Counted from the first letter of the stretch, positions 2,430 to 44,501 are shown. The stretch is 64,000 nucleotides of DNA from a bacterium (GCA_963662285.2 CAXXMV010000001.1:640001-704000), one strand, 5' to 3'. Notes: generated by a model not told the origin, from the sequence alone. Program-made: numbers and translations.

Positions 2430-2451
2430 AATCGTGCAATGATCGTGCAAT
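2430..2451 (+). promoter_or_regulatory. Putative integrase arm-type sites (tandem CGTGCAA)
   Basis: AATCGTGCAATGATCGTGCAAT; near-identical AATCGTGCAACGACCGTGCAAT at 43380-43401 inside the other end. Confidence 0.65.
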
Positions 2452-3871: not shown

Positions 3872-3892
3872 TATTGATTTCTTAAACCGTTG

Positions 3893-8604: not shown

Positions 8605-8700
8605 TAACTGGCCAGTTTTGTTTGGAGCCTCTCCCGCTTAAAAATCTGTGTAACCGTTAATAGCCGTTACCGCTAAAATTATAATCACTATACTTTTACA

Positions 8701-8715
8701 GCAAGTAACGTTCCA
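8701..8715 (-). promoter_or_regulatory. Putative sigma54 (-24/-12) promoter for the primase-polA-xis-int operon
   Basis: Minus strand TGGAACGTTACTTGC (GG-N10-GC), ~100 bp upstream of the primase ORF. Confidence 0.55.
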
Positions 8716-19100: not shown

Positions 19101-19252
19101 GTGAAACTCTCCCTGAAGGTATCGCCCGGTTTCTGCTTGTTATTCAGGTCGATAATCTCCCAGCCCAATCCCGCCAACTGATCCAATAGCGGTTTTTCAA
19201 CGTGGTTACGTTCGTCGAGTTTGATGTGCGGAGGAGTTTTGTTCGTTTTCAT
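16124..19252 (-). CDS. hsdR: Type I restriction endonuclease subunit R
   Basis: PDIVLFVNGLP..IECK nuclease motif, HTQGSGKS, DEAHR, TGTP, TGFDAP, QAIARVNR. Confidence 0.96.
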   Translation of the reverse strand: MKTNKTPPHIKLDERNHVEKPLLDQLAGLGWEIIDLNNKQKPGDTFRESFTEVVMLPVLRESLKTINPWLEDDQVEEAVKHLTANFPGSQLIENNRHLLHLLLENTSVSENRQTGEKSPTVRFIDFKNSQNNRFIAVCQYKVRILGTEHHIYPDIVLFVNGLPFVVIECKSPKVNDSIPEAIDQLMRYSEQRGAKGEGSPSLFFYNQFIVVTSRQKAKFGSITTKTEKYFFRWADPYPLSVDDLEHGGSTANDQQRLVAGMMTKDNLLDIIRTFTLFTTNDKGETIKIVGRYQQFRAVKKAVKQLLDGKTPRERSGIIWHTQGSGKSLTMMFMVREMYKHPQLCQWKVVFVTDRTQLEDQLLETGQNIGFSVNQANNIPELKDLLRSGSSDLVMAMIHKFQERDLTQTFPELNPSPNILVMTDEAHRSQYALLAANLDKAIPNAARFGYTGTPIDKTERVFGDYIDKYTMRQSIEDGVTLEIVYEGRTHNAEIVNRDAMDTAFADVFSEYNLQERLAILGYGSRDAYLEAEPTITAKAEDVIRHYLDHVFPNGFKAQVVAASREAAVRYKTALDKALADVIAELEKSNPRKLNLVTLKKLETDVIISSNNNDQLHLKPYTNPSKHKASIKSFKLPFEGQDEGVTGEIGIVIVYNMLITGFDAPVEQVLYLDRVIVAHNLLQAIARVNRVESEDKEKGFVVDYVGIGHHLKRAIDVYDDKEQKEIRDSLSFPEEELRELQANCRVIQEFLEKYGLTDYNDLDSFFDLFYDEDIRFEYMQAFKNLTKSLNLVFPAKEALEYMNLYQQLTEINVMAAKHFYDARLSMKGIPAKLRVLTDAYLESKGIEQKIKPISILDDDFESQVGKRKREKTKAAEVEHAIRHHIEVELDDDPDLQASFAEALAAIFMEFKENWQKIYEELEKLRKRILNANKEPTYGLHKKKQMPFFRMFKKEIYDNGELDDDQISKMVDLTQQVYNTVERELKLTGFWECNPARKRLRAEIQQVLLSANFVRLPGIISKREQIITRCMELAYKNNDRILYAP

Positions 19253-20604: not shown

Positions 20605-21770
20605 GACTTGGCATCCTCTCGTTCATTTAGCAGTTTTGTTACACGCACCGTACCCGTTAATAAGTCTTGCATTAGGGCGGTTTTCTGACAAGTGAACTTA
20701 TTCAAGCTGCTTTTATAGTCCTCAATCAGTTGATCTATTGCTTCCAATACTTTTATGATTTCAATTTGTTCAGTTCTATTTGGTACTGAAAGTTGATTAG
20801 GATGTAAATCATTTCGGTTTAGAGACGGCGATCCAGATTTGGTTCCAAATCTTTGCAAATCTAAAAAAGTATATAAATAAAAAACATACTTTACACAGTT
20901 ATCATTAAAGTTAGTTACAAACAAACTTGTATCATGTGCCCAAAAGTCACCTTCAACATAGTGAACTAAACCAATTGTTCCTTTTCTTCCGACGGTTACA
21001 CCGGGGCCACTTGTTGTCCATTTGTTATGAAACCCAATAATTCCTGATGATGATATTACAGGATAGGTTCCTTCAATTATATTCTCTTCAATAATATCAA
21101 ATCCACGTTGTAGAGGGGCGAAATTACGAAGATTAACAATTTCCCACTCCACCGGAATCCTCCCCAGCGGAGTGTCCTTAAACTCATGATTTTCTTCAGA
21201 GCGGATATTGCCGTGTTCGTCGATGCCTTTGGTCAGCAGGTCCTGCATCAGGCCGGTCTTAATGCGCTGCTGCTTGGCGATCAACGCCTCGGTCTGCTCA
21301 ATCGCCCGATCTACCATCGAGAGAATTTCAGAGATTTGGGTTTGCTCTGCTTTGTCAAATTCAAGGATTTCCAACTTTCCGAGAATTTCTTTATCTACAT
21401 GCGGGATACCAGAACCAGATGTATGTCCTTTGAGATAAGGCTCCCATTTTTTCAGAGCATAAAAGAAATATTCTGTATCAAATTCATCTCCGTGAGATAC
21501 GTAAGTCATTGTTGAAGCTAATAAACCTTTACGTCCTCGGAAAATCTCACCAGCGTTTGAACCATCCCACAAAAGCACAGTATCTCTATCATCAATCCAA
21601 ACAGCTTTTGCGCTTGGCTTTGCGAGTTCGGCTGGTGCTTTACATCTTAGATATTCAGGGGACAAATAATAGGTTGCACCTTCACCGAAATATGGTATTT
21701 GGGCAGGTGGTTTACCTTTATTTAGAACGACCACTTCTGAAAGTAATTTATGCTTAATTTTTATAATCAT
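20601..21770 (-). CDS. hsdS: Type I R-M specificity subunit S (probable ATG 21770)
   Basis: Two TRDs separated by [28 protein letters not shown]; C-terminal ALMQDLLTG; ATGA overlap with the hsdM stop. Confidence 0.93.
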
Positions 21771-24424
21771 CCCATATACCCCAATCCCTTCAAGAAACCA
21801 TCCAACGTTAGCAGAGTTTCCTGCCGTTGCGCTTCTAGTTCGCAGCTGCTGACGGCGTATTTGTCCCACAGGTTTTCCACGATGCGGACAAGCGCCCGCT
21901 TTTCGGCGTTCAGGTAACGGTTCAGTTCTTCGTTGATCAGATCGTAGAGTTTCTTAAGGATCAGCCGCTTGGCTTCCTCCTCGGACAGCGGCCCGCCGAT
22001 TTCTTTCAGCAGTCCATCGACGCGCTCCAATCGCGCATTAAGCGCCGCCTTATCCTTGTTGAGGGCATTGACCTTTTTCTTGTTGTCTTTCTTCGCCGGA
22101 TCGAGCCCCGCCAATTGCGCCTCAACCTGCCGGATCAACTCGCGCGTCTCTGCCTTATATTCCTCGCCGCCAAGCCGTTTCAGTTCGAGTTTCTCCTGCA
22201 ACTCCGATTCTTTCTCTTTCAAAAAGGCCTTCAATTCCTTGATCGCCTTTTCGATATCTGTGATGGCCTTGAGCTGCCGCTGGTATTGCTTCAGTTCCTT
22301 TTTCGCCGACTCGCCGGGCGAATCCTTCAGGTCGTCTATTGTGCTTTTCAGATGTTTCTTGATCACAGTCGCGGTTACTTTTTCGCCTTCATCCGGTTCG
22401 TACTCCACCGCTTCCACTGCCTCCTCCAATTCCCCCTGCTTTTCACTAATCCGGGCTTCCAGGTCGGCGATGGCATCCGCCTCGGCTTGAAAGAATTCGG
22501 CGATAAGATACTTGTCGGGGATCAATCCATGATACCAACCGGTTGTGGTGACGGTTTTGAGATCGTATCGGATATTCTTCCACCAATTCACAAAAACTCC
22601 GGCGGACTGAAATTCATCGAGCACATTAAGTGGTACGAGTCTATCTTTGATAGTGGTTAACAGTTCGTGGCGCACGTCGGGTAGTTTCCTACCGTCGCGC
22701 AGCTGGGCGAAATCGTCACGTGCAATCGTCCACCACGTTTTTAGTATATTTGCATGTTTCGCCAAAACCTTAATCAATTGCTTATCTGTCTCCAGCCGTG
22801 TTTTAATAGCAGGTTTACTATTGATTTCAGGACGAAAAATCAGATAACCCGCCCGCTCTGGTTGAAACAAGGTCACCGAATCTACACGGAATTTAAAAAA
22901 CTCTTTGCGTTGTGTCTCAACCTCCGATTCTGGTACTCCACCGATCAAGTGCGCCTGTACATCTTCCGGCTCAGGATCTGGGGTATTATCCACATACCGG
23001 CGGATGTTCAGATTATAGTCGTGCTTTTCAATAATTTCGGTTGAATCCACCAGGCGGCTGTATTTAGAGATTTCCAGTTTATGAGTGAAGACGTGATCTA
23101 TTTTTTCGATGTCTTCCGGTCGAAGTTTGTTCTGATTTTTGCCCTCGGCGTATTCACGGTCGGCATTGACGAACAGAATCTTGTTCTTAAGCGTATCGGG
23201 TTTGTTTTTATTCACCACCAGCACGCAGGCCGGAATACCCGTCCCGTAAAATAATCCTGACGGCAAACTGATTATCGCTTCAATCCAGTCTTCCTGAATG
23301 AATATTTCGCGAATGAGTTTCTCTTTCCCGCCCCGGAAAAGAACGCCGTGGGGCATTATCGTCGCCATATGCCCATCGGATTTCAAACTGGCGATCATGT
23401 GCTGAACAAACATCAGATCGGCTTTTTTCCCAGTCTCCGTGCAAAACTCCTGAAAGCGGTGCTTAAAGTCCATGTTCTCGCGGCTGTAGTTCTGAGAAAA
23501 GGGAGGGTTGGCAAGCACGCGGTCGAATTGACGAATCTTTCCATTCTTCAAAATCAGAGGATCTTCCAGCGTGTCGCCGTTTTCAACGGTAAAGCGGGTG
23601 ATGTTATGCAAAATCATGTTCATGTTGCAGATCGACCATACCGTGCCGTTGGAGTCCTGGCCGTACAGGAATAAGTCATCCTGATTCTGCCCCTGTTCCT
23701 CGACGTATTGATACGCCTGAATGAGAAAGCCGCCAGATCCCACAGTGGGGTCATAGATCGTTTTACCCGCTTCGGGCTTGACTAACTGTACGAGCAGCCG
23801 AACTACTTCGGCGGGCGTATAAAATTCACCGCCCTTTTTCCCCGCGCTATCCGCAAAATATTTGATTAGGTATTCGTAAGCGGCTCCAAGCAGGTCTGGA
23901 AACTCAAAATTATCGTTGATCAACACAATACCGTTGAAATGATCGAGCAGTTTTTTCCAATTCTGGTCAGATATCTTTGTTTTGCCTTTTACGGCGTTGA
24001 AATCGATATTGTTTTTCAACACGCCAGCCAGCGCGTCGTTCTCGTCTTCAATGGCGGCGATTGCTTTATTCAGCATGTTGCCGATGTCATGCTTGAGATC
24101 TTTCATTGGTGGCACTTCGTCGCCATTCTCATCGATCCACGATTCACGCCAACGCGCCCTGGTTGGAATGAAAAAGGTATCGCTATACGACGTCTTGCTG
24201 TTTATGACTTCTTCATACTGTTTCGGATCAATTTCCTTCAGATGAGCGTAAGTCTTTTTGATTTCTTCCCGCTTTACATCGAACTCATCTGAAAGCCGCT
24301 TAATAAAAAGCATTCCAAAGATGAATTCCTTGAATTCCGAAGCGTCCATTTTACCGCGCAAAATATCAGCGGCTTTTAATAGAAAACTTTCCAATTGAGC
24401 AAGAGTGATTTTGTTACGGTTCAT
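21767..24424 (-). CDS. hsdM: Type I R-M methyltransferase subunit M with long coiled-coil C-terminal extension
   Basis: [30 protein letters not shown] motifs. Confidence 0.96.
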
Positions 24425-25504
24425 AAATACTTAAATTCCCATCGTTTTTCTATTAACCAAAATCTTATCATGTTCCATAAAATTGACTTTAGGAATCATC
24501 TGCGATAGTAGTTAGCGAGTCAATTACCCCAGTTCGAAAACAAAAAAAACGTGAACCTGTCAGATAAAGGACGCTGCTTTTTAGAAGACTTAGTAGAAAA
24601 AGCCGCTTTTCTTACATCAAGCAGTGCTCATGGTAATCCCACAAAGACAGTCTGTCTCAAATAGTCACCCGCCATATTATTCGCCCCACCGCAACTTTCA
24701 CTGCATATAATCCACTTATCCACCCTAACCTCTCCAGGAGTAGACGTAGGCATGGGTCCAGATGAAACGTATTTATCTTACTGGACACAATTCTTCTTGA
24801 CTCATGATTTTCAAATTATCGATTAGAATACTCGATTTGACGCCGGGACCGCCCAATTGTACTACGCCAATGGGTGCAAATATTATAAGTAACTGGTTTT
24901 TGCTTGCCGATATGATTTATTACACCAGAACAAACTACAGGCGTCAACTGAACTGAACAACATATACTTACAACTAATAAATACATATATAATAAATAAT
25001 ATGCCAAATAAGTACCAAATATATTCATTATTTGCAAAAATTTTGGGTGGAATCGATAGAAAAATGAATTATGCACTACGCTTTTGATCCATAATACTGA
25101 ATAATACAACTGTATGTATTGACTTAATTGAATGACCTTGATGCGTAAGTATTAGATTGTTTGAGTCTCGGCGTTTTTACGTATCATTGAATAGTTATTT
25201 GTTTATTGTTGAAAACCTTGTAAAGTAACTCTTGTTATTTGCTGTTTTTATTCTCTATTGCATTCGACATGAACCGTTTTTGCGCAAAATCTTGTTTTTT
25301 AATGGATGTTTCTAGTGATATCACGGAAACCAATGGTGTTACGCTTATAGGGGCAGGTGTTCGGTTAAGTTTTCCTGTAATACTTATTGATTGTTGATGA
25401 ACATCAGAAGAAACGATGGTTGCGCTTTTAGTCTACCGATTAAACTCGGTTGCTTTTTGTTTGATCAAATCTTAAAAATCTCAAAATGCAGAGGAGAATT
25501 TATT

Positions 25505-27853
25505 ATGAACATGGTGAAATCTTTACGCTTCAATGCAACGCGAAAATTTGTATTTTACGGGATGATGGCATTTTGCTTTATGTTTTCCCAGAGTGGCGCT
25601 ACCCAGGAGACGATAGTTATCGATATTCCAAACTTACCGGCAGGCGCTAAACCCCTGGAAATGATACGAGTACCAGCAGGGACTTTTCTCATGGGTGCAC
25701 CAGCCGAAAAAGTTGAGAGTTTTGATGATGAAAAAGATGAATCTCCACAGCACAAAGTTTCAATCACTAATCCGTTTTATATTGGAAAATACGAAATAAC
25801 GCAGGCGCAATGGAAAGCAGTGATGGGCGATAATCCTGCGAAGGATTTCGGTGAAGGAAATGATTACCCAGTTTATTTTGTGTCATGGAATGACTGCCAT
25901 AGTTTTATAGAAAAACTTAATTCACTTGGACAAGGGCGATTTCGCTTACCAACTGAAGCGGAATGGGAGTATGCCTGTCGAGCGGGTATAACAACAGTAT
26001 TCTTTTGGGGAGACGACCCAATTTCTATTAAACTAATAGATGAATATGCGTGGACTTTTGGGGAAAATGAAGCAAAAAAATGTCATGTTGTTGGATTAAA
26101 AAAAACAAATCTCTGGGGATTATCTGATGTCAAAGGTAATGTTTGGGAATGGTGTTATGATTATTATGGCAAATATGTCTCAGCCGATCAAATTGATCCA
26201 AAAGGGCCTTCATCAGGAACTCACCTAGTAGTTCGTTGAAATGGTTCTATTAGATTAGTTCCAGACCATTGTTCTTTAACAAATCGAGGCATGGGTTCAC
26301 AAAATGAACGACATAAAGAGATTGGTTTTCGCATTGTACGAGAATATACAAGTCTACTACCGACGCCAATAATAACTCCAACGCCAACAGTTACTCCATT
26401 CCCAACCCCCACCCAGACGCCAACACCTGTTTCAGCGGGGACAGAACCTTTTGAATTGCCATTGAATGTGGATATCGGCCCATCAACGTTCAACCTTAAT
26501 TTGGGTACAAACGAATCAGCAACCGTCATATATGATCCAGGGATTGATGTATTAAGCCCTCCAGCCGATCCATCGGGTAGAGAAGCATATTTTATTCTTG
26601 TTTCCGGTGAAAAGTTGTGGACGGATTTACGTAATCTTGATACAGAGAATAGAAAATGGACTTTAATCATCACGGTTCCGCCCAATCAGCAAGCCACGAT
26701 TGTATGGAATCCAGAATTAATTCCCGATGACGGATATTTTGTTCCCGTTGATGCAATGGGGCGTCCTTCTGGGAAATCTATCGATATGAAGACGGAAATT
26801 TCTATCGACATTGAGGCGCAAGGCGGATTTGTTGCACGGAAGTTCTATTACCAAATTAATTTTGAAACAATTCTACCGGTAACCTTAGATTACGATTTGG
26901 TACGCGGCTGGAATTTAATTTCTGTACCGTTGCTCGTCGAGGAAAACGTAGTTCCAAGTAGCGTATTTGGAGCAATCACGCCAATATGGTCTTATAATCC
27001 GGAAATCTCGCAATACGAAATCCCAACATCCTTCGAGATGCAAAAAGGTTATTGGGTTTATGTTGAGCATGATCAACTTTTCCAAATAACAGGCCGCCAA
27101 GATAACAACCTTCCTATTACATTGATTCCAACCTGGAATTTGATTGGCGTTAATCAATCCGTTCTTCGCAGCACAGAAGGAATCGGTGTCGTATGGGGAT
27201 ATGATAACGTCAAAAAGAGATATATTCCTGTCGCGCCAACAGAATATTTAGAACCGCAAAAAGCGTATTGGTTCCAAGTCGGCGAACCAATTGAGTTGTT
27301 CTCGGATACTCCGCCAGCGAAAGTATCACATCGCGTAAACAAGGTAAATACGTTGAACGTTGAGACTCCATCAATTCTCTATTTGATTAATCCATCGATT
27401 GGTTCGGCACCTTTAGCGACATTAGAACTGGGAAGAGACGCCTCCGCTATCAATGAACTCGGTCCAGAAGATCTTCTTGCGCCCCCACCAGTTCCTGATT
27501 CAGACGGGAATGCATTTTTCTTGCTTAACACAGGGGTAGATTACGTAAAAGTAATGCGTGATGTACGTAGTATGCAAGGCAACCTCACTTGGCTTCTAGA
27601 AATCGATCAGAATCCAGGGATACCCGCCTCGCTAACCTGGGATGCAGCGGTCTTTGATGAACTAGCCCAAGCAGAGATTATTGAAATCGATCCAAATACG
27701 CTGCAACCAATAGCAGGATCCTCTTCAATAAAAATGGCGATTACCAATTCTTTACAGTTGGCTGCACCACAAGGCTTCGGTGGTACAAGTCGTTTCTTCC
27801 AAATTACATTATCAGAAAATACCGCCGTTTATGATTGGTTTATCATGAATTAA
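25505..27853 (+). pseudogene. Secreted FGE-sulfatase/CLec-domain surface protein interrupted by an in-frame TGA at 26237-26239
   Basis: ORFs 25391-26239 and 26291-27853 share a frame; RLPTEAEWEYACRAG, GNVWEWC, then VVR*NGS...GFRIVR; PT-rich linker; GWNLIS repeats; GAGGAG RBS before ATG 25505. Confidence 0.75.
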
Positions 27854-35198: not shown

Positions 35199-35356
35199 GG
35201 CTTGGTAATCGCCCTGGCAGAACCTTCTGCTTTCGCTTACCAGCCCCGCCAAGGCAGTTTTTTGTTTGCACGGATTCTCACCGTGTCGGGGATGGAACTG
35301 GACTCCTTGTATACTCCTGAACGATTCGCACCGTCCAGATCTGATATTTGGGAGTA

Positions 35357-35470
35357 CTGCACAAACGAAAACCCCTGTTGTTTTTCCTGTTGTTGGGGTT
35401 GTTCCTGTTACGATTTGCAGAACGGCAGTTCCTGGTGTTGTTGTTCCAGCTGCCGCCCCGAAGAACCCTG
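35357..35470 (-). ncRNA. DGR template repeat (TR)
   Basis: 114 bp, ungapped match to the VR at 36995-37108; AAC-rich, reading [37 protein letters not shown] in the VR frame. Confidence 0.96.
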
Positions 35471-36541
35471 AGCGTCCATCCCTTCTACTCGTTGGAAAAC
35501 CAACGGGCCTATTACTTTTTCCCGCAACCGCCAACTATCTGCATGAGATACATGAGCAATCCAACTCATAATTCGTTGTTTTGCATCGTTTAAGTTTACT
35601 TCTTCATTGCTATACGCTTTTTGCAATTCTCTGAATCTGCTTCTGGCTTTCTGTACATTGCCAGAGACAACGCGAACATAATTTTGAAATACCCTGTATC
35701 CCAAGAATGTTATACCTTTGGAAACTGAGAAAATTTGGCTCTTGATTGGATGGATAATCAATCGGTTATGCTCTAGAAATCTTTCAATTTGAATACGCCA
35801 TTCTTGTAATTGTTCTTTGGAATCAGATAAAAGTACGAAATCATCCACATATCGTAAATAAGTCTCACATTTCAATGTTTCAATTACAAAATGGTCAAAT
35901 GGATTCAAGAAAATATTGGCGAAATGCTGGCTGGTCAAATTACCGATGGGAATGCCGCGACGGCGTTCGATATGAGTAAAAAGGTCGTCACTTGGGAAAT
36001 ACTCCACGATTTCTTCTTGAGGATTACTGGCGTCAATGATGGTATCCAGGAGCCAAAGTGTATTGGGACACTTGATCTTTTTTCGCAATAATCCTTTGAG
36101 AATTGCATGATCTATGCTGGGAAAATATTTTCGGATATCTGCTTTGAAAACATAGTTATATCTTTTGGCATAATACTTTAGGGCTTGTATGGCCCGATGC
36201 GTTCCATACCCGTTTCGGTTAGCGAAGGTTTTGTTCGTGTATGTGTTTTCAAATATGGGCATCACTATTTGGCAAACCGCGTGATGGATCACTCTATCCC
36301 GGTAAGGCGCGGCGGAAATGTAACGTCTTTTGGTATCGAATACTTCAAAGCAGGTATAATCCCCAGGCCAATACGAATGATTTAGAAGTTCTTGCTGAAG
36401 TTTCATAAGATTCTTTTCCAAATCGTAGTTAAAGCGAAGCACTTGGTCATGATACCGCTTACCCCGTTGAGCGTTTTTTGCGGCGCGAACCAGGTTATCC
36501 CAGGTTACGATTTGAGAGAACAAGTTACTATGTCTTTTCAT
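35408..36541 (-). CDS. DGR reverse transcriptase
   Basis: [29 protein letters not shown] (DGR-type), [12 protein letters not shown]. Confidence 0.97.
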
Positions 36542-36885
36542 GCTGACCTTCCCTGTTGCCGCAGCCAGCCGCCCAGCATGGAGCCGATTTCATTCATATT
36601 GACGCTGGCGAATTCGTATTGGCGGTTGCTGAAAATATTGAAATCTTTGAGAAGGCGGGTTTGAAATCGAATGACCTCCAAATCCACGTTCAGTTTTCGT
36701 AATATTTCGTTCCGTGCGCGACTATACCTTGCCTGGATAAGGCCTTCCAATAGACCATAAAGCAACGATGTCATCCTATTTCCCAAACCAAAGCGGTGAT
36801 CCCGCGGCATGCGGTTTAGATGGGGTATATACCATAGAATCAAATCGTAAGTTTTTTGTATGATGGGCAGTTCTTTTTCGCTCAT
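36538..36885 (-). CDS. avd: DGR accessory protein Avd (four-helix bundle)
   Basis: YDLILW, PRDHRFGLG, EIGSMLGGW; ATGA overlap with the RT gene. Confidence 0.92.
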   Translation of the reverse strand: MSEKELPIIQKTYDLILWYIPHLNRMPRDHRFGLGNRMTSLLYGLLEGLIQARYSRARNEILRKLNVDLEVIRFQTRLLKDFNIFSNRQYEFASVNMNEIGSMLGGWLRQQGRSA

Positions 36886-36913
36886 TCTTATATACTCCCA
36901 AAAAAAATCGCGT

Positions 36914-36926
36914 CGGGCTTCGCCCG
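36914..36926 (-). promoter_or_regulatory. GC-rich hairpin downstream of the VR (candidate DGR homing hairpin and/or terminator)
   Basis: Minus strand CGGGC-GAA-GCCCG followed shortly by a T tract, ~60 bp after the target stop codon. Confidence 0.6.
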
Positions 36927-36984
36927 CATTTTAAAATGGAAAAAATTTAAATGGCAAATGGTAAAATAGTAATATACCAAATGG

Positions 36985-39525
36985 CTACTGAGTCCTGCAC
37001 AAACGAAAACCCCCGCCGTCCCTCCCGCTGCCGGGGACGCTCCCGCAACGATTCGCAGAACGGCAGACCCAGGTGACGTAGTACCAGCTGCCGCCCCGAA
37101 GAACCCTGTACGAGCCAGAACTTGCACCTTCAGGATCATTGTTTGGAGAATTGGCATAATAATTGCTATCATACCAATCATTACACCACTCCCACACATT
37201 GCCGCTCATATCAAACAGACCAAATTCATTTGGTAATTTCGTTCCGACTTCATGGGTCTTTGATCCCGAATTGCTAGTATACCAGGCATAATCGCCAATA
37301 TTTCCATTTTCCCAATAATAATCTGTCGTTGTTCCTGCCCGGCAAGCGTATTCCCATTCAGCTTCTGTTGGCAAGCGAAAAGTCCCATATCCCATCTCAT
37401 TCAGTTTTTGAATAAAGGTCTGGCAATCATTCCAGGAAACTTGTTCTACTGGATGGTTGTCTCCACTGAAACGTGATGGATTGCTCCCCATCACCGCCTG
37501 CCACTGCGCTTGGGTCACCTCATACATCCCCATATAGAAATCTTTAGAGATTGTAACCTCATGAATCGGTTTTTCATCTGAATCACCAGAATTACTACCC
37601 ATATCGAAAGTACCCGCCGGGATTTTAACCATAACCAGTTCCTTCGCCCCGGCGGGGAGAGTTAGGGAAATGGTTTCAGTTTCTTTGTTTTCTGCTGATT
37701 TCAGAACTTCCTGCACCGCATAATAGGCGGATTTGGCATTGTAATTGTCATCGAATAGCAATGGAGTTCCCCAGCCGGGATAGGTTTCGGGAATCCAGGT
37801 ATACTTGTCTGTGAATCCCCACATGATTAATCCCGTACAATTATCCGCTAATAGACAAGCATCTAATATGCTGGCATAGATATTCGCTTGCTCGTCTAGC
37901 ATTGCTTGCGTTGCGGGCTGCTTCAGGCTGACATCCAGTTCTGTAATCTGGCATTCCACACCAATCTCTGCAAAACGATTCATATAAGCGATTAAATCAA
38001 CGGATGATGGCACTGGGGCAGGAGCATGGATTCCAGTGGATGGATCAGACGCATTGACGCCTAGATGCATTTGCAGCCCGACGCCGTCAATGGGAACGCC
38101 ATTTTCTTTGAGCGCTTTCACCAGATCATAGATTCGTTCCGATTTATCCCCCAAACCTTCCGGATCGTAATCGTTGTAGAACAGTTTAATGTCAGCACCG
38201 ATGTTTGATGCGGCTACGTAAGCATACTCAAAGGCCAACTCGACATATTCAGCACCAATCTTATCTGCCCAGAACGAATTTACACTGTTATCGTCTACTT
38301 TAGAACTTAGCCTAATAACAGGATTATCCACGTAATCTAACGCCAAATCTCCTTGATCGGGCACAGCCTCGTTTACCACATCCCAAATGATAACGCGTCC
38401 GGGAAAGTTATCAGCGAAGTGTGTGACGACCGTCTCAATATAACCATGGAGAAGAGCAATTGCATCGACCTTATCTAATTCAACCTGATGTTTCTCAAGC
38501 CACGATGGAAGATTGTTGTATTTCGGGTTGTGCCAAACCAGGGCATGGCCCCGCACATGCATGTCATTGGCGGCGGCGAACTCGACGATTGAGTCTGCAT
38601 CTCCCCAGTTGTAGTCTGAGGCAGTGATGTTTTCCCAGTTAATGTTTGGGTTATACAACAGCGCGTCCATCTTCATCTCATTTTCAGGGGTGATGATGTT
38701 AAACTCACGCGCCAGCGTAGCCTTGTAGTTCTGGTCGTTCCATGGGGTGTTTTGGATAGTTCCGTTACTGTTCCAGGTATTCATACGGATTGAAGAGCCT
38801 ATTTTGAAGTTGGCTTTGTCAGCGTAGGTGCGCAATCTTTCACCATCAGGCTCTATAACTAAAATTGAAGAATTATTCTCATCGGGAACTATACTAATTG
38901 TATTTGGATCATCCCCATCGCCATCCAAAAACGCGCCGTCGTAATATCTACCTGATTCGAGGAGATAGACGTCAAAGTTATCGATGTAAAAAGTTACCGT
39001 TCTACCGCTGTTTTCAGGATTGTGAAGCTGGATGAACGGATCGAATCCCAATCCCGGTGGAACAAACAAAACAGAAACCTGTCTCCATTTGTTGTGAAAT
39101 TCAGATAAACCCGCCGGGCTGTTGGTGGGCACATCGATAGAACCGCTTTTCCCAATCGCCCCTATCGTGATAGAGCCTTCAGTGCCGTCCATTCTTACAT
39201 TGCAGCGAATCAGGGCAGCGTTGATTGCGTTAAACGATTTATTAAAAATCATAACGCCTTCGCCCGGATCGGCGGTGACGCGAACCCCAATCCCATCCGT
39301 AGCGCTCTCGAATGAGTTGTTCGTGGGTATTGTCACGCCAAACTGAACATCGGCTAAAGGTAAAGCGCCAAAACCAGCGCCTTGTATTGTTATGCCATTG
39401 GCTGCTGCGGATTTACCAGCAAAATCAATACGTATAGGATCATCCTGGGCATAGATAGTCTGACATAATATAATACTAATAAATACATATAACACATTCA
39501 CGAATAAATTCTTCATAATAATCAC
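36985..39525 (-). CDS. DGR target: secreted protein with GH10 xylanase-like domain and C-terminal FGE-type CLec domain containing the VR
   Basis: Signal peptide; GH10 motifs TPENEMK, GHALVWH, WDVVNEA, YNDY, GLQMH, ITELDV; FGE motifs [30 protein letters not shown]...GFRL. Confidence 0.93.
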   Translation of the reverse strand: MIIMKNLFVNVLYVFISIILCQTIYAQDDPIRIDFAGKSAAANGITIQGAGFGALPLADVQFGVTIPTNNSFESATDGIGVRVTADPGEGVMIFNKSFNAINAALIRCNVRMDGTEGSITIGAIGKSGSIDVPTNSPAGLSEFHNKWRQVSVLFVPPGLGFDPFIQLHNPENSGRTVTFYIDNFDVYLLESGRYYDGAFLDGDGDDPNTISIVPDENNSSILVIEPDGERLRTYADKANFKIGSSIRMNTWNSNGTIQNTPWNDQNYKATLAREFNIITPENEMKMDALLYNPNINWENITASDYNWGDADSIVEFAAANDMHVRGHALVWHNPKYNNLPSWLEKHQVELDKVDAIALLHGYIETVVTHFADNFPGRVIIWDVVNEAVPDQGDLALDYVDNPVIRLSSKVDDNSVNSFWADKIGAEYVELAFEYAYVAASNIGADIKLFYNDYDPEGLGDKSERIYDLVKALKENGVPIDGVGLQMHLGVNASDPSTGIHAPAPVPSSVDLIAYMNRFAEIGVECQITELDVSLKQPATQAMLDEQANIYASILDACLLADNCTGLIMWGFTDKYTWIPETYPGWGTPLLFDDNYNAKSAYYAVQEVLKSAENKETETISLTLPAGAKELVMVKIPAGTFDMGSNSGDSDEKPIHEVTISKDFYMGMYEVTQAQWQAVMGSNPSRFSGDNHPVEQVSWNDCQTFIQKLNEMGYGTFRLPTEAEWEYACRAGTTTDYYWENGNIGDYAWYTSNSGSKTHEVGTKLPNEFGLFDMSGNVWEWCNDWYDSNYYANSPNNDPEGASSGSYRVLRGGSWYYVTWVCRSANRCGSVPGSGRDGGGFRLCRTQ
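36995..37108 (-). repeat. DGR variable repeat (VR)
   Basis: 24 mismatches to the TR, all at TR adenines on the coding strand. Confidence 0.96.
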
Positions 39526-39643
39526 CTTTTTGAGATAATTTATAAACGCCTAACAAATTAGATCGTATTTGAACTGTATAATCAAGTGTGCTCCTTATTT
39601 TTGCGCTTGAGTGGATAATAATTCGATTTATCCAAAATCAATT

Positions 39644-39967
39644 TCACAGCAACCCTTTTACCCACATAATACAATTTTCAACGATTCCAAAGGTGGCAAG
39701 GATGATTGGTTTGACTTGTTCATTCCGCATTGCATATTCAAGCGCCCACAATGTTAGAATCGAATAAATGATTGTTAGAATCTTTATGATCAGTATTTCT
39801 TCCACTATGCGGCGGCATTTGGCGCGGAAGGGCAGTTCACGGAAGGTTGCTTTTCGGCGGCGGGGCCGAGGGATGAATACAATTTCCCCATACTGGTTAA
39901 CCTCATAGTCTCCCCGGCGATCATTGGTCGGCATGGTTCCAAGAGGACTTTGATACAATCGAGCCAT
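39644..39967 (-). CDS. Hypothetical membrane protein, last gene of the E2-JAB-E1 operon
   Basis: AAGGAG RBS, basic N-terminal half, hydrophobic C-terminal segments. Confidence 0.6.
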   Translation of the reverse strand: MARLYQSPLGTMPTNDRRGDYEVNQYGEIVFIPRPRRRKATFRELPFRAKCRRIVEEILIIKILTIIYSILTLWALEYAMRNEQVKPIILATFGIVENCIMWVKGLL

Positions 39968-39985
39968 CTCTCCATCTCCTTTGGA

Positions 39986-41191
39986 TTAAAAGACTGTTTC
40001 GTGAGGCTTTAATGAATCCCATATACATTCTGGATCATCATCGGGTATTTCATCACATAGCATGGCAGGTTCCGAGTATTCAGGATTTCGCTTATTCTGG
40101 CAGATATCACAATTTGATCGCGGCCCGACAAAGCGCGTAGGGAAAATATCAAACGGTTTCTGAAAAGGATCATGGCCTTTGCAAAACGCTCCGCCAACAA
40201 ACCAAAAACAGCGGTCAGGATTTACAATCTGTGCATAGGCATCGTTGTGATTGCGCAAAAGAACGCCCAAGGCTATCTGGGCTTCCAGACTGGACACAAA
40301 GTTGACGGCTGCGTGCAAACCCGGCTGACCTTCATAATCGTCCCGGCCAGTTGCAGTACTATAATCAATGGGACCGCGTTTCTGTTGGACGACTACGCCT
40401 CCACCTTTTAAGCAACATAGGCAGGGCGTTTCCCATTCGGGAACATAAGCGAAGACCTCGCCGCCGATAGCATTTTCATAACAACCACCAAACACGGCGG
40501 GTGTTCGATGGTTTACCGCCCATTCATTGACCATAAGTTGAACAGCCAATATATCGGTGGATGCGATAACCAGACTGGATTGGGTAAACAAATCGTACAT
40601 AAACGTATCTGAATCGTCTTGAAAGATATCCCGTGGATAGCATTGAACCTGAGCATTGGGGTGAATATCCATAATCCGGTCTTTCACAACGGAGACTTTG
40701 TTGCGTCCAAGATCGCTGAATCCCCCTTCATGCCGCGAGAGGTTGGAGGCTTCCATCGTATCAGGATCAATCAAGATAAAATTCCCAACTCCAGCACGTG
40801 CCAATTCCAGGGCCAGGTAACTACCGCCAGTTCCACAACCGAAGATGGTTACAGTGGAATGTTGTAGAGTCTTCAGGCACGCAGGATCGAAGGGAGTCCG
40901 CGCAAACACATCATGATCTTCAATTACCTCAACCTGTGTGAGTGAAAGATGATTCTGACTCCAAATGAAAACCTTGGGCTGCGATGAGTGTGCGAAGACA
41001 AATAACCAGGGAGACTGGGGAGGCGTTGGAATTGCCTCTCCCCGGTGCAAGACCTGTCCAATTACAGATCGGTCGTGCGTCATTTCAGGAGCGCAGATAT
41101 GAGCCGTGTTTTCCTCTTCACGGATAACGCCATGAATCTTCATACCCGGTTTTAACTGCGACAGTGCGTGAGACGAAATAAACACTCTCAT
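39986..41191 (-). CDS. ThiF/E1-like adenylating enzyme
   Basis: GCGTGGS, LARAGVG, DPD...SNLSRH, GRNKV, STD, Zn motifs CLCC and CDIC. Confidence 0.92.
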   Translation of the reverse strand: MRVFISSHALSQLKPGMKIHGVIREEENTAHICAPEMTHDRSVIGQVLHRGEAIPTPPQSPWLFVFAHSSQPKVFIWSQNHLSLTQVEVIEDHDVFARTPFDPACLKTLQHSTVTIFGCGTGGSYLALELARAGVGNFILIDPDTMEASNLSRHEGGFSDLGRNKVSVVKDRIMDIHPNAQVQCYPRDIFQDDSDTFMYDLFTQSSLVIASTDILAVQLMVNEWAVNHRTPAVFGGCYENAIGGEVFAYVPEWETPCLCCLKGGGVVVQQKRGPIDYSTATGRDDYEGQPGLHAAVNFVSSLEAQIALGVLLRNHNDAYAQIVNPDRCFWFVGGAFCKGHDPFQKPFDIFPTRFVGPRSNCDICQNKRNPEYSEPAMLCDEIPDDDPECIWDSLKPHETVF

Positions 41192-41197
41192 GATAAT

Positions 41198-42094
41198 TCA
41201 CCCATATTGGACGAGCGCTGATAGGGATTTTCTCATCCGACTATACTGCTGAATCGCTTTAGCTATCGATTCTCCCACTTGACGCTGCATTGGAATAAAA
41301 CGGTTACGCCACGCTCCATAACTTAATTCGATTAACAATTCTTTCGGCTTACTTTTATCAGATAAAACGTAAGCATAATGCTCTGCGCCCCGCTTTGCAT
41401 ACAACGCTGCATATTTGGCTTTGCCCGAATAAAAGACTGTTGTTTCAAAGCCATGAGCATTCATCTCTGATGTTTCGTCATCAATGAAATGTTGGAATGT
41501 AGAATGTATATCTTCTGGTATGGCAAATACATTTGATACAGAACAGGGTGTGGATGATTCGATTTTAAGTGATTGCGCAATATCTTTATGGGTGTCTTCG
41601 ACCCAGTGCAATTGCAAAGGATCGAAACCAGTCAGGTCTTTGCGCAATTCATAGGCGCAAATCCGCCATCCCTGTTTCCCCTTTTTATGATTCATTGTTA
41701 CTATGAATGACAAGAGGGGGCCAATTGAAAGATCCCAGCCGTCTTTTTGCACCATACGCACGGCTTGACGTAGATCGCCCTTGCTGGGCGTATGAAAGGA
41801 GCCTGGGTGTTTATGCCAGTATCCCAGTACATGAACCCTGTTCTGATGATGCCATTTGATGATATTGAGCAGCAGTTGATCGAATTCTGCATCGTTTGAA
41901 CAATGGATAATATCAAGATCCGAATTCGGACCAGCAGGAAAGGCATAGAGCAGCGCTGGATCAGAGCAAGTTCCAACCAGCAAACCGACGGTCTCCTGGT
42001 TGAGGTTTTTGTTGCATTCCGATTCGATGACGGCGAGACAAGACCAGGATGCAGGCATCACTTTGGCGAACAAAGGAATCGAGAGAATATTCAA
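41198..42094 (-). CDS. JAB/MPN-domain metallopeptidase with C-terminal extension
   Basis: ETVGLLVG and GYWHKHPGSFHTPSKGD (E...HxH-x7-S-x2-D JAMM motif). Confidence 0.88.
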   Translation of the reverse strand: MNILSIPLFAKVMPASWSCLAVIESECNKNLNQETVGLLVGTCSDPALLYAFPAGPNSDLDIIHCSNDAEFDQLLLNIIKWHHQNRVHVLGYWHKHPGSFHTPSKGDLRQAVRMVQKDGWDLSIGPLLSFIVTMNHKKGKQGWRICAYELRKDLTGFDPLQLHWVEDTHKDIAQSLKIESSTPCSVSNVFAIPEDIHSTFQHFIDDETSEMNAHGFETTVFYSGKAKYAALYAKRGAEHYAYVLSDKSKPKELLIELSYGAWRNRFIPMQRQVGESIAKAIQQYSRMRKSLSALVQYG

Positions 42095-42097
42095 CGA

Positions 42098-42529
42098 TCA
42101 AGCCCTCCTTCGCAGCAGAGGGTTGGATGATTCCCGCTGATTTTCCCATTTGTTGCCATCTGGCCAATGTTTGGTTCGGCGATACTCCTCATACGACCGT
42201 ATCCATCCACAAGCCCAATCGAGAATCACTTTACCGGACGTTTGAGGCCCAACATCATCAACCCCCCACAAACACAAACGACCATCGCCAAACATGTGGG
42301 GAGCAGGATTGATGCGGGGCGATGTAATGACAACTTCGGGGTGATCGTAGGGAAAACGGTCGGGATAATACATCATTATATTGTACAGTTTCCCTTTCCA
42401 GCGGAATTTCAGATAGACCTCTATCCTCCCTTTGCGTTGAGATATGCGGGTATTGGGATAGACCTTGTTGATTAAATTGGTTTCAAGCCGTAAACGTTCA
42501 GGCAGACGTATATACCAAGGTTTCATCAC
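42098..42529 (-). CDS. Ubiquitin-conjugating E2-like protein
   Basis: RLRLE, YPDRFPYDHP, PHMFGDGRLCL (HxxxxGxxC catalytic motif). Confidence 0.85.
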   Translation of the reverse strand: MMKPWYIRLPERLRLETNLINKVYPNTRISQRKGRIEVYLKFRWKGKLYNIMMYYPDRFPYDHPEVVITSPRINPAPHMFGDGRLCLWGVDDVGPQTSGKVILDWACGWIRSYEEYRRTKHWPDGNKWENQRESSNPLLRRRA

Positions 42530-42596
42530 TTCACCTCCTAGTAAGGCGTCAGATCAATTGGAAGACGCAGAATAAAGGAATCGATCAGCACACAAA

Positions 42597-42764
42597 TTAA
42601 TGCCAGGTCGTTTTCTTCACATCATCCCGCTGATCCTGCTTATCCAGGTTAATAGTGACAACCTCTCGATCCTGAGGCGACATGTCCCGTCCCAGTAAAG
42701 GGCGTGGTTCCGGAGCGTCGTGGCTTTCTTCTTCGAAATTGGGGGTATTGGGCTGATCAGGCAT
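42597..42764 (-). CDS. 55-aa acidic peptide, first gene of the E2-JAB-E1 operon (absent from the ORF track)
   Basis: AAGGAGA RBS ~6 nt before ATG; MPDQPNTPNFEEESHDAPEPRPLLGRDMSPQDREVVTINLDKQDQRDDVKKTTWH*. Confidence 0.7.
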   Translation of the reverse strand: MPDQPNTPNFEEESHDAPEPRPLLGRDMSPQDREVVTINLDKQDQRDDVKKTTWH

Positions 42765-42932
42765 AGTATTTCTCCTTCTATTTTTAAAGTATGATTAAAA
42801 AAAGACAAAACTATCCCTCAGAAGTGATTTATATTTACATAAACCACTCAAAACAATATGGTTATAGATAGAAATAAGGATGGGAAACTTAAAGGATGGC
42901 TCCCGAAGGCAAGGGCATAGAAGATCAATCGC

Positions 42933-42981
42933 ATCGCATTACTTACCCAGGTAATGTAATGCGATAATAAAATAAAGTCAA
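42933..42981 (-). promoter_or_regulatory. Sigma70-type promoter overlapped by a 33-bp palindrome
   Basis: Minus strand TTGACT-17bp-TACATT; plus-strand palindrome ATCGCATTAC-TTACC-CA-GGTAA-T-GTAATGCGAT covers the -10 box. Confidence 0.6.
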
Positions 42982-43517
42982 GCGCTTTTTTCATTTTTTT
43001 ACACTAAAAGATTTGGTGGAATTCTAAGAAGCAACCGTAGAGCTAAAGATGCCGCGATTATCTGACTCCTGAGCTGAGCAAGGAGCAACCAGCACCAATG
43101 ACCACGCAAAGATAACGTATAACAGAAGCATTAATTGAATAGAGCCACGCTGAACCATGATTTCACCCGCATTTCGGAATAGCCAAAATAAATCGAATGA
43201 TAGGATTATCTCAAAAAACAGAAGAAGAGTCTACTTGAGAGAGAGATTTCAACATAAACAGCGGATAATATTTGATTTGCAGACTATTATATTTGTTATG
43301 GGCTGTGGAGGGTGCAATGAGTTATAACCTGACTTGATCCATCACTCCAATTACGATGCGAACGGCGCTTCTATTTTGAAATCGTGCAACGACCGTGCAA
43401 TACAGGGGTGGTTTGAGGGGGTCTGAGGGTGGTCTGAGGGTGGTGTCAACGTGAGGGCAAGATGAGTAAGTGTTTCTAAATGCTTGCTTTACTGATATTT
43501 ACGTGAATTGATGAATG

Positions 43518-43564
43518 TGATTTGTAATCAGCCGGTCGGAGGTTCAAGTCCCCTCGCCAGCTTA
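43518..43564 (+). repeat. Right att core (duplicated tRNA-Thr 3' half)
   Basis: Identical to 2325-2371; lacks the tRNA 5' half. Confidence 0.95.
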
Positions 43565-43805
43565 CTTATTTCACTAGACTTATAATGATATCCCCTTAAA
43601 AAATTAAATTTCTCTTACAGCAGTTATGGTAAAAATACTACGATGTTTCTATGTGGGATATCCCATTTAAGAAGCATATATTTTTCTATACGTGAGTTTT
43701 TCGGTTATTTTTTTATTTCTCATAGGTTGTTATTCTTGGACAAATAAGTAATATCATACAAGTATTAGAACAAAAGAGAAATAATACAGTTTTGAGGAAA
43801 TCACA

Positions 43806-44501
43806 ATGCAATTAAATGTCCAAGAGGTTTCACAATTGCTAAACGTATCAGATAAAACGATTTATCGATGGGTTAGCCAGGGTGAAATACCCGCATACAA
43901 ATTCAAGGATCAATATCGTTTCAACGAAGCTGAGATTCTTGAATGGGCGATTATCAGGAAAATCAATATTTCCACCAATTTATTAGACGCATCGGAAACG
44001 AAGAATATCGTAACGCCGAAACTCTCCGAGGTTTTGCAGAATGGCGGTATTTTTTATCGTCTGGAGGGCAATGATTCCAGTGCGGCGATCAGTTCATTGA
44101 TCAAATCTTTACCAATTCTCGATGCACCGGTGCGTCAATTTTTGTTGGAAAGTTACATAGCGCGTGAATCTCTTAATTCGACGGCTGTGGGTGACGGGAT
44201 CGCCATCCCCCATTCGCGGGTTCGCGTGGTGCCTTATATCGTACGCCCGATGGCAGCCTTAGGATTTCTTGAAAACCCGGTTGATTTTAAGGCCCTGGAT
44301 GGTCAGCCTGTCCAGATATTGTTCACTGTCTTAAGTCCCAATTTGCGGGATCATCTGCGCATTCTTTCCCGCTTCATGTTGGCATTAAACGATCCAGAAT
44401 TCCGGGAAGCTCTACGAAAACAGGAATTGCGTGAAACGATTTTGAACCATTGCCGCCGTATTGATGAAAGTTCTACCCCTTCAAAGAATCCTAATCCGTA
44501 A
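43806..44501 (+). CDS. PTS IIA (Ntr/Fru-type) protein with N-terminal excisionase-like HTH
   Basis: VSQLLNVSDKTIYRW..GEIPAYK; RE..STAVGDGIAIPH; DGQPV. Confidence 0.9.
   Translation: MQLNVQEVSQLLNVSDKTIYRWVSQGEIPAYKFKDQYRFNEAEILEWAIIRKINISTNLLDASETKNIVTPKLSEVLQNGGIFYRLEGNDSSAAISSLIKSLPILDAPVRQFLLESYIARESLNSTAVGDGIAIPHSRVRVVPYIVRPMAALGFLENPVDFKALDGQPVQILFTVLSPNLRDHLRILSRFMLALNDPEFREALRKQELRETILNHCRRIDESSTPSKNPNP

Follow-up and report, generated by a model that had tools for sequence, protein, structure and literature searches.

The E2-JAB-E1 operon and its genomic island

The window, i.e., the whole stretch of 64,000 nucleotides of bacterial DNA that was analyzed, contains an operon of five close-packed genes on the minus strand (39644-42764), which was delineated by ORF calling and domain profiles. 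The genes encode, in this order, a 55-aa peptide, an E2, a JAB metallopeptidase, an E1, and a small membrane protein, and the last four of them are separated by 3, 6, and 18 nt. The following features were annotated:

42953..42981, minus strand: TTGACT-17-TACATT, promoter-like hexamers ahead of the peptide gene, a consensus match alone
42597..42764, minus strand: gene of the acidic peptide, 55 aa, an ORF with a Shine-Dalgarno site
42098..42529, minus strand: UBC-type E2, 143 aa from a GTG; probable ATG start at 42526
41198..42094, minus strand: JAB/JAMM metallopeptidase, with a JAB domain (residues ~20-150) and a C-terminal domain of ~110 residues
39986..41191, minus strand: ThiF-type E1 adenylation enzyme, 401 aa (ThiF, 1.6e-34)
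39644..39967, minus strand: membrane protein, 107 aa, an ORF with a Shine-Dalgarno site
43518..43564, plus strand: attR-like 47-bp repeat, identical to the 3' part of tRNA-Thr(TGT) at 2325-2371
2297-2369: tRNA-Thr(TGT), the integration site of the island

The same five genes in the same order are present at a second locus, L001. The identities between the two loci are 51, 56, 42, 52, and 37% for the peptide, the E2, the JAB, the E1, and the membrane protein, respectively. The peptide gene comes first and the membrane protein gene last in 2/2 loci with readable DNA; these two loci and five distinct peptide sequences formed the sample. At L001, the start of the membrane protein gene overlaps the stop codon of the E1 gene in an ATGA.

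The first-pass annotation of this region had described five co-oriented genes on an island and behind one promoter, and had recognized an E2 with the motif PHMFGDGRLCL and its Cys, an intact JAMM motif, and a ThiF-type E1. The five genes were found at the given coordinates, all on the minus strand, and motifs as well as profiles confirmed the three enzymes. The island was borne out by the exact attR-like copy of the tRNA-Thr 3' part, a repeat of which 0 are expected by chance and which extends to 47 bp. The island comprises ~41 kb and is integrated in tRNA-Thr, and the operon is cargo at its end. The single promoter did not hold up in the same way: a hexamer match is present, but the region contained 11 promoter-like matches versus 9.6 +/- 2.7 in shuffles, i.e., no excess. 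Rfam had no match in 39000-44000. PADLOC, NCBIfam, Pfam, and PHROGs yielded domain-level matches alone and no system name, in agreement with the earlier view, which PADLOC had been proposed to check, that the system is uncharacterised.

The three enzymes and their relatives

The E2 matched the E2 and E1-E2 models of PADLOC with a best value of 2.7e-11, and its match to UQ_con of Pfam (0.0061) was under the family cut-off. The motif PHM..G.LCL is invariant (P77, H78, M79, G83, L85, C86, and L87 in 4/4 sequences), and Cys86 is the candidate catalytic residue. The closest solved sequence was that of UBE2W (4.6e-6). For the JAB, the match to Prok-JAB (2.2e-6) was over the cut-off, the JAB models of PADLOC matched down to 6.6e-9, and the JAMM residues E34, H94, H96, S104, and D107 are invariant in all six sequences. 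An AF2 model of the JAB from a six-row alignment had a mean pLDDT of 55, and the C-terminal domain was modelled as a helix, five strands, and a helix with a pLDDT of ~70-83. A Foldseek search of this model against the PDB gave no match at E <= 0.001, the best being TolB and BRCC36 with E >= 0.012, and the C-terminal domain had no usable match in the ESM Atlas. We rejected a fused Ubl with Gly as its last residue as an explanation for this domain: a terminal Gly is found in just 3/6 sequences, one further sequence has a Gly and then two residues, and the order of the modelled elements is the one given above.

The E1 has one ThiF match, covering residues 101-317 of 401. Its further features are an N-terminal region of ~100 residues without a family, a G-loop (GCGTGGS), and two cysteine clusters (CxCC and CxxC); the ATP loop is intact and conserved between the two copies. 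Formation of a thioester by the E1 is uncertain because the predicted crossover region (residues 261-292) contains no cysteine in either copy and the sole nearby candidate, C259, lies within the CxCC cluster. The best score of the N-terminal region in the ESM Atlas was 0.81, which is below 0.9 and within noise, and an AF2 model of the E1 from a two-row alignment (pLDDT 39) was unusable. When isolated, neither this region nor the C-terminal domain of the JAB matched anything in Pfam below E 0.006; a cryptic beta-grasp may reside in one or the other. The Cap2-type E1-E2 models of PADLOC matched the E1 down to 5.5e-29, and among PDB sequences it matched ThiF/MoeB at 1e-12, MccB/PaaA at 1e-10 to 5e-11, and Cap2 at 1e-6.

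For all three enzymes, the best profile matches were Cap2 and Cap3 of type II CBASS. The E2 matched the N-terminal part and the E1 the C-terminal part of the Cap2-type PADLOC model PDLC00855, whereas the JAB was matched by Cap3-type models, with which it shares the intact JAMM motif. Like the operon, type II CBASS is found in mobile or defence contexts. However, Cap2 is a fusion of E2 and E1, whereas in both loci the E2 (143 aa) and the E1 (401 aa) are encoded separately, on either side of the JAB gene. In addition, the JAB has a C-terminal domain that Cap3 does not have, and the last gene of the operon encodes a small membrane protein without a nucleotide-sensing domain. Furthermore, type II CBASS contains a CD-NTase, while there is no cyclase among the five proteins of the operon; the single match to a 'Cyclase' model (PDLC00816) involved only the C-terminal E2-like part of the model (422-535), which aligned to the E2. 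Cyclase and Ubl families were absent from the operon, 21 ORFs of the island, and 7 neighbours of L001, and none of the five operon proteins matched a Ubl profile of Pfam. At the profile level, this confirms the earlier statement that neither a CD-NTase nor a Ubl is recognizable.

The operon resembles BilABCD, the type I/II Bil defence systems with ubiquitination-like chemistry, in that the genes for E2, JAB, and E1 are separate and are preceded by a small first gene, that of the modifier in BilABCD. BilA is reported to be a Ubl of the beta-grasp fold whose C-terminal Gly is conserved, and BilD to combine an inactive with an active adenylation domain in tandem and to have a Cys-bearing helical insertion (PMC10557695). 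In contrast, the E1 of the operon has a single ThiF domain, and its first gene encodes a peptide that has no detectable fold family and ends in His. The 6A-MBL and Bub operons belong to a series of bacterial E1/E2/peptidase cassettes, 6a-6e, that Iyer et al. 2006 defined (PMC1779556); the operon described here is likewise a cassette of E1, E2, and peptidase. NCBIfam 6A-MBL_cap2_3 (NF058523) matched the JAB with 23.4 bits and the E1 with 62.7 bits, compared with a cut-off of 320; unlike 6A-MBL, the operon has separate genes, no MBL gene, and no triple fusion. The Bub E2 is described as using Ser/Tyr oxyesters, with a catalytic Ser in place of Cys (PMC11601596), whereas the E2 of the operon retains the invariant Cys86; a match to DUF6527 (BubE), as in the Bub (6E/DUF6527) cassettes, was not found in the operon.

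The peptide and its conserved tail

The Shine-Dalgarno motif of the peptide gene, GGAG, is located 8 nt before the ATG. The peptide is rich in Pro and acidic residues (13 D+E, 7 K+R), contains no Cys, and is probably disordered, and it belongs to no family in Pfam, NCBIfam, PADLOC, or PHROGs. Homologues are P0006, P0007, P0008, and the L001 copy (9350-9514), which also has a Shine-Dalgarno site. A profile search of 1.84 billion representatives retrieved exactly two further peptides, with E values of 4.7e-25 and 1.6e-18. Judged by these two relatives and by its recurrence with a Shine-Dalgarno site at L001, the ORF is more than a chance reading frame.

The five distinct peptide sequences are all 54-55 aa long, and 24 of 55 alignment columns are invariant. 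The N-terminal 20 residues are variable, but length and acidity are kept. They are followed by a conserved core, RPL[LI]G[RH]DM, and the peptide ends with an invariant tail, DQRDDVKKTTWH, directly before the stop codon. Two lysines of this tail, located 4-5 residues ahead of its end, are invariant, and 5/5 sequences stop after the same final residues, ...TTWH, so that the terminal residue is always His. Between the window and L001, the last 12 codons have 8 synonymous substitutions and 0 non-synonymous ones, and purifying selection on the tail at the protein level is shown. Six-frame translation of the window and of the fetched loci revealed no further occurrence of the tail motif, and no longer protein with this motif was found among the 1.84 billion representatives.

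The conservation is at the amino-acid level and affects mostly the last ~35 residues, while synonymous codons drift, and a ribosome-arrest peptide would show the same pattern. The small ORF could thus be a cis-acting leader, i.e., a ribosome-arrest or attenuation peptide that tunes the expression of the E2, JAB, E1, and membrane protein genes; the real substrate of the E1 would then be elsewhere, such as a host or phage protein, or would not be a protein terminus. In both loci, the ORF heads the operon and precedes the start of the E2 by 61-70 nt, which is in accordance with this, and known arrest peptides may be comparable in composition and length. Nevertheless, we regard a leader as unlikely. 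The spacer between the peptide and E2 genes has no RNA structure beyond shuffles (z -0.84 and +0.23) and its sequence is not conserved between the window and L001, a function confined to the tunnel would not require the variable N-terminal part to keep its length and acidity, and a cassette that moves as one unit would comprise a complete set of E1, E2, and JAB but no substrate for them.

The core offers another explanation, namely that the JAB cuts the peptide after Gly25 (RPL[LI]G/[RH]DM). An acidic 25-mer with a ubiquitin-like R-x-L-x-G end would then be the true modifier, and the last 30 residues would be a pro-segment or have a separate role. R21, P22, L23, and G25 are indeed invariant in 5/5 sequences, and cleavage of pre-proteins after a conserved Gly is reported for the Bil and Bub JAB enzymes (PMC10557695, PMC11601596). 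However, the discarded part would be by far the most conserved and the would-be modifier the least conserved, and nothing would explain why the stop codon never changes its position, so that we consider this cleavage highly improbable.

The peptide as a candidate modifier

The first-pass annotation had proposed the peptide or the membrane protein as modifier or substrate, plausibly of a system for defence. The membrane protein belongs to no family in Pfam, NCBIfam, PADLOC, or PHROGs. Hydropathy analysis revealed one strong hydrophobic segment (~55-80) in both copies. The conserved N-terminus (Y.SPL...R.G.YE.NQYGEIV.I), which we annotated as cytoplasmic, is followed by a juxtamembrane segment that is strongly basic in both loci. 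The C-terminus is not conserved between the window and L001, which makes the membrane protein less likely as a substrate of the E1. Because of this lack of conservation, no product of the operon other than the peptide has a conserved C-terminus. The part of the proposal that concerns the membrane protein was thus weakened, while the peptide may be the modifier or substrate. The small upstream ORF recurs together with its C-terminus, and 2/2 loci are headed by it, rather than lacking it or carrying a normal Ubl or CD-NTase, which favours the earlier proposal.

It is also conceivable that the peptide is never activated but is a target, a decoy, or an antitoxin-like inhibitor of the membrane protein or the enzymes, with the tail as a binding epitope. 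An acidic peptide would fit the basic juxtamembrane segment in both loci, and the two lysines of the tail would be compatible with such a role. Yet the exact end of the tail at the stop codon in all five sequences would lack an explanation, and the E1 would have no conserved C-terminus to activate within the cassette. We therefore regard a peptide that is not activated as very unlikely.

The reading that we favour, and to which we give about an even chance, is that the peptide is a fold-less modifier that is activated at its C-terminal carboxylate within a self-contained ubiquitin-type conjugation cassette. We infer the chemical steps, the target, and the biological role of the operon as follows. 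The ThiF-type E1 would bind the tail DQRDDVKKTTWH and adenylate the carboxylate of the terminal His, and the acyl group would be passed to Cys86 of the E2, either directly or via a cysteine of the E1. The E2 would transfer it to an amine on the target, and the JAB would undo the linkage; deconjugation is assumed to be the role of the JAB because no processing of the peptide is required. The small membrane protein, which is co-conserved, would be the likeliest effector or target; its L001 copy contains no Lys ahead of residue 87, so that an N-terminal or non-lysine linkage would have to be taken into account. A role of the operon in conflict or defence is plausible. The enzymes would represent a Cap2 (E2 and E1) that is split in two genes plus a Cap3-like JAB, and the peptide would stand in for the disordered CD-NTase C-terminal tail that Cap2 activates in type II CBASS.

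E1 substrates typically end in Gly or Ala, and the terminal His of the peptide thus argues against a modifier. Co-folding of the E1 with the peptide and ATP gave scores of 0.00 and 0.23 relative to a mark of 0.32, in runs without controls, and speaks neither for nor against a modifier. An argument in favour is that the substrate is encoded within the operon in characterised relatives (PMC11601596). In Cap2-cGAS, only the extreme, disordered, and conserved C-terminus of the substrate is reported to occupy the E1 active site, and the substrate C-terminus in type II CBASS is conserved and diglycine-like, with a small terminal residue (10.1101/2022.03.31.486616). The tail of the operon peptide is conserved too, but has a different end.

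The MccB and PaaA enzymes, which are ThiF-fold proteins that act on short ribosomal peptides, are among the closest solved sequences of the E1, and a RiPP-like maturation was also considered. The E1-like enzyme would activate the peptide C-terminus for an intramolecular or small-molecule reaction, the JAB would be a processing peptidase, and the membrane protein would confer immunity or export. Cyclisation would suit a short precursor whose C-terminal core is invariant and which has two lysines close to its end. MccB/PaaA have an N-terminal peptide-clamp or RRE domain, and the N-terminal region of the E1 (residues 1-105), which matches no Pfam family, could hold the peptide. However, the similarity of the E1 to ThiF/MoeB is equal or better, and Cap2-type profiles scored far better. 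The peptides of MccB/PaaA have 7-30 aa and other termini. To our knowledge, MccB/PaaA clusters have no E2 or JAB partners, and a UBC-type E2 that is conserved and has a catalytic Cys plays no role in RiPP logic as we know it. In addition, the operon encodes no transporter or other tailoring enzyme, and a protein of 107 aa is unlikely to be an exporter. Such a maturation is, in our view, distinctly unlikely.

As a modifier, the peptide would be similar to Pup, a covalent protein tag of ~60 residues that is acidic and intrinsically disordered. Pup is ligated via a side-chain carboxylate by the glutamine-synthetase-like PafA, and no E1, E2, or JAB is known to be involved. The two systems share no sequence similarity, and Pfam revealed no PafA/Dop family among the operon proteins. 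In all characterised E1/E2 systems that we know of, what is activated is either a protein of the beta-grasp fold or a tail that belongs to a folded enzyme (CD-NTase, Pycsar, or MBL enzymes). We tentatively suggest, with somewhat less than even confidence, that the operon specifies a 'tail-only' tag, i.e., a free disordered peptide of 55 residues that is activated at its C-terminal His, linked to targets by E1 and E2, and removed by the JAB. Possible targets are the membrane protein of the cassette itself and the proteins of an invader. This would be a minimal form of E1/E2 tagging, a Pup-like solution with E1/E2 enzymes. If this is true, a fold is dispensable for E1/E2 tagging, the minimal recognition element is a tail of ~12 residues ending in His, and a small, genetically compact tagging system is available for study or use. 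The operon would then also represent a further very rare branch of the bacterial relatives of ubiquitination on mobile, defence-rich islands.

A peptide-headed E2-JAB-E1 operon was not found described in the literature searched, which comprised text passages on Cap2, Bil, and Bub. Searches of plasmids by tblastn with the JAB and the peptide gave no match, and tblastn with the E1 against plasmids and phages retrieved distant ThiF proteins alone, the best of which, in phage record MT836827, adjoins an FtsK-like ATPase without an E2 or JAB. The operon family is very rare: 5.8 billion clusters contained homologues of the JAB in 5 cases and of the E2 in 3 cases. One neighbour of L001 is the defence candidate HEC-05.

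An operon of five genes and a related locus

Open reading frames and the DNA read confirmed the five co-oriented genes that the first-pass annotation had described:

42597-42764, minus strand: peptide, 55 aa (ORF; GGAG 8 nt upstream of the ATG)
42098-42529, minus strand: E2-like protein, 143 aa (ORF; ATG at 42526 as the probable start)
41198-42094, minus strand: JAB protein, 298 aa (ORF; Prok-JAB match)
39986-41191, minus strand: ThiF-type E1, 401 aa (ORF; ThiF match)
39644-39967, minus strand: membrane protein, 107 aa (ORF)

The intergenic gaps E2/JAB, JAB/E1, and E1/membrane protein are 3, 6, and 18 nt. The proposed identities of the three enzymes were supported by profile searches with Pfam and PADLOC. 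E1 matched Pfam ThiF at 1.6e-34, JAB matched Prok-JAB at 2.2e-6, which exceeds the cut-off, and E2 matched UQ_con weakly (0.0061). CBASS-derived PADLOC models gave much stronger matches than Pfam (E2 2.7e-11, JAB 6.6e-9, E1-E2 5.5e-29), and a single Cap2-type model, PDLC00855, was matched by E2 in its N-terminal part (3-111) and by E1 in its C-terminal part (251-517). With NCBIfam, all matches of the five proteins stayed under the model cut-offs, PHROGs recognised solely the ThiF core of E1, and the peptide and the membrane protein had no match in any of the four libraries.

The peptide/E2/JAB family is very rare. Searches of 5.8 billion clusters yielded five JAB homologues at E <= 0.001 (from 680 candidates) and three E2 homologues (from 8), and a word search with the peptide yielded one homologue from one candidate, a 96% identical copy. 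The longest contig for this copy, and equally for the closest JAB and E2 homologues, is 3854 bp. When a profile built from three peptides was run over 1.84 billion representatives with no word index, two proteins and no others came back, 54 and 55 aa long (E 4.7e-25 and 1.6e-18); the motif was found in no longer protein among these representatives.

A scan of genome contigs matched 19 stretches, and one locus was confirmed, the MAG contig L001, so that two loci (window and L001) were read as DNA. The gene order in L001 is that of the window, with a 54-aa peptide at 9350-9514 behind a GGAGG site, and the ATG of the membrane protein overlaps the stop codon of E1. The identities to the window are 51% (peptide), 56% (E2), 42% (JAB), 52% (E1), and 37% (membrane protein). 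A small upstream ORF with a conserved C-terminus, the recurrence of which had been put forward as a check, was thus seen again in a locus that keeps all five genes. The two loci differ in context, and the five genes thus travel together as one module.

Catalytic residues and additional domains

The JAMM motif and the E2 cysteine, both noted earlier as intact, turned out to be invariant. E34, H94, H96, S104, and D107 are shared by JAB and its five aligned database homologues (6/6), and P77, H78, M79, G83, L85, C86, and L87 are found in 4/4 aligned E2 sequences. The solved sequence nearest to the operon E2 is the eukaryotic E2 UBE2W (4.6e-6). A RiPP-like pathway acting on the peptide is conceivable, as the nearest solved E1 sequences include MccB and PaaA, but such a pathway has no place for a conserved catalytic E2.

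E1 retains the GCGTGGS loop and contains two cysteine clusters, CLCC (257-260) and CDIC (361-364), of which CLCC aligns with the ThiF CxxC and is invariant (window 40234-40425, E1 residues ~257-320). Passages of PMC11601596 place the catalytic cysteine of related E1s in the region equivalent to residues 261-292; both copies, window and L001, lack a cysteine there, which makes a thioester on this E1 less certain. Y277 and Y286, within this cysteine-free stretch after CLCC, are invariant between the two copies.

The C-terminal ~110 residues of JAB and the N-terminal ~100 residues of E1 matched no family or atlas look-alike, and the JAB model matched no known fold. Shallow alignments kept the structure models weak. 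The E1 model was too poor for use, and a cryptic fold in its N-terminal ~100 residues is possible. The moderate-confidence model of the JAB C-terminal domain consists of a helix, five strands, and a helix, which differs from the beta-grasp order.

An unannotated phage record, MT836827.1, encodes within 584-6308 a 382-aa E1-like protein with 24% identity to E1 residues 3-342, N-terminal region included. Next come a 93-aa ORF and an FtsK-like protein of 1423 aa, without E2 or JAB, and this may be a different E1-based system sharing the E1 N-terminal region.

The peptide as a candidate substrate

Five distinct peptide sequences were aligned, and 24 of the 55 columns are invariant. Residues 1-20 vary in sequence with their acidity maintained, the core RPL[LI]G[RH]DM is kept, and all five peptides end in the same twelve residues, DQRDDVKKTTWH, each time directly followed by the stop codon. 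Eight positions differ between the twelve tail codons of the window and L001, and all differences are synonymous. On the sequences compared, selection on the tail acts on the protein, not on DNA or RNA. Six-frame translations of the window and the fetched loci did not contain the tail motif elsewhere.

Conservation of the last ~35 residues at the amino-acid level would equally be expected of a cis-acting leader or arrest peptide; however, the structure of the peptide-E2 spacer was within that of shuffles (z -0.84 and +0.23), and the variable part of the peptide keeps its length and acidity. Cleavage by JAB behind the invariant Gly25 might expose a ubiquitin-like RxLxG end, but the best-conserved part of the peptide would then be thrown away. 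The peptide might also be a binding partner or antitoxin, which would leave the fixed position of the stop codon unexplained.

The operon itself encodes the protein activated at its C-terminus in type II CBASS, Pycsar, MBL, Bil, and Bub, according to passages of PMC11601596. In Cap2-cGAS, as described in part of 10.1101/2022.03.31.486616, a tail that is disordered and conserved places just its final seven residues in the E1 active site. Because substrates are operon-encoded in these relatives and the peptide is the only operon product with a conserved C-terminus, our preferred reading is that E1 acts on the peptide as its substrate, a "tail-only" modifier, and we judge this reading to have an even chance of being correct. 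We infer every chemical step: the peptide would be adenylated at His55 by E1, handed to Cys86 of E2, moved onto an amine, and freed again by JAB, with the membrane protein as effector or target. Either small protein had been suggested as modifier or substrate; the peptide is retained, whereas the membrane protein is judged less likely as the E1 substrate, its C-terminus being completely different between window and L001.

Profile searches agreed that neither a CD-NTase nor a beta-grasp Ubl is recognisable. CD-NTase, other cyclase, MBL, DUF6527, and Ubl families were absent from the operon (Pfam, PADLOC, NCBIfam), from 21 further island ORFs, and from 7 ORFs around the L001 operon. Membership tests placed the cassette outside type II CBASS, Bil, Bub, and 6A-MBL. 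In the classification by Iyer et al. 2006 (6a-6e), operons of 6a and 6b lack a Ubl and those of 6d carry a beta-grasp Ubl; the portion of PMC1779556 consulted makes no mention of a short non-beta-grasp peptide as first gene. A full-text literature search found no description of a peptide-headed E2-JAB-E1 operon, although supplementary operon tables of the Cap2, Bil, and Bub papers could list one. In its working, the cassette would come closest to a split Cap2/Cap3 pair in which only a tail is left of the cyclase.

The integrated element and neighbouring genes

The island location proposed for the operon was substantiated by a 47-bp exact repeat, the 3' part of tRNA-Thr(TGT) at 2325-2371, which is copied at 43518-43564 and bounds a ~41-kb element. 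From these repeats, the integrase-like gene, and the cargo between them, it follows that the operon is the last cargo module of an integrated element, with 750 nt separating it from the right end of the element. Inside the repeats are a family-A DNA polymerase, a primase-polymerase, type I restriction-modification, a UvrD-type helicase, a PD-(D/E)XK nuclease, and a diversity-generating retroelement.

2297-2371: tRNA-Thr(TGT) region, left boundary of the element
2452-3702, minus strand: integrase-like gene adjoining the tRNA (Phage_integrase 1.9e-5, slightly under the cut-off)
15448-16122: YgjP-like metallopeptidase gene
16124-19252: HsdR, type I restriction-modification
19249-20604: Schlafen/AlbA_2-HATPase_c_4-wHTH protein, between HsdR and HsdS
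20601-21869: HsdS
21767-24424: HsdM
35352-35470: retroelement template repeat
35408-36541: retroelement RT
36538-36885: retroelement Avd
36985-39525: GH10 + FGE-sulfatase-domain gene
36990-37108: retroelement variable repeat, 3' end of the GH10 + FGE-sulfatase-domain gene

Within 3893-8604, the family-A DNA polymerase carries a 3'-5' exonuclease domain, and a protein of 886 aa includes a primase-polymerase helix-bundle domain of the NrS-1 type; the two genes suggest a self-replicating element. A sigma-54-interaction AAA+ protein is encoded within the island at 9559-11289 (PADLOC RtcR/PspF-type models, 7.7e-52). The retroelement (35352-39525) lies directly downstream of the operon, and template adenines account for 24 of the 25 mismatches between its template and variable repeats. 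At a second FGE-sulfatase-domain gene (25391-26239), no repeat of at least 40 nt was found.

Just beyond the right repeat, on the strand opposite the operon, 43806-44501 encodes an HTH_17 (excisionase/MerR-like) domain fused to PTS EIIA_2, and this gene probably belongs outside the operon. Upstream of the L001 operon (5995-8973) are a 585-aa protein matching the PADLOC candidate defence protein HEC-05 (2.3e-50) and, by the look of their translations, a minus-strand ORF of 168 aa that resembles a transposase of the IS200 type, and two small ORFs, also on the minus strand and overlapping each other, as a putative toxin-antitoxin pair.
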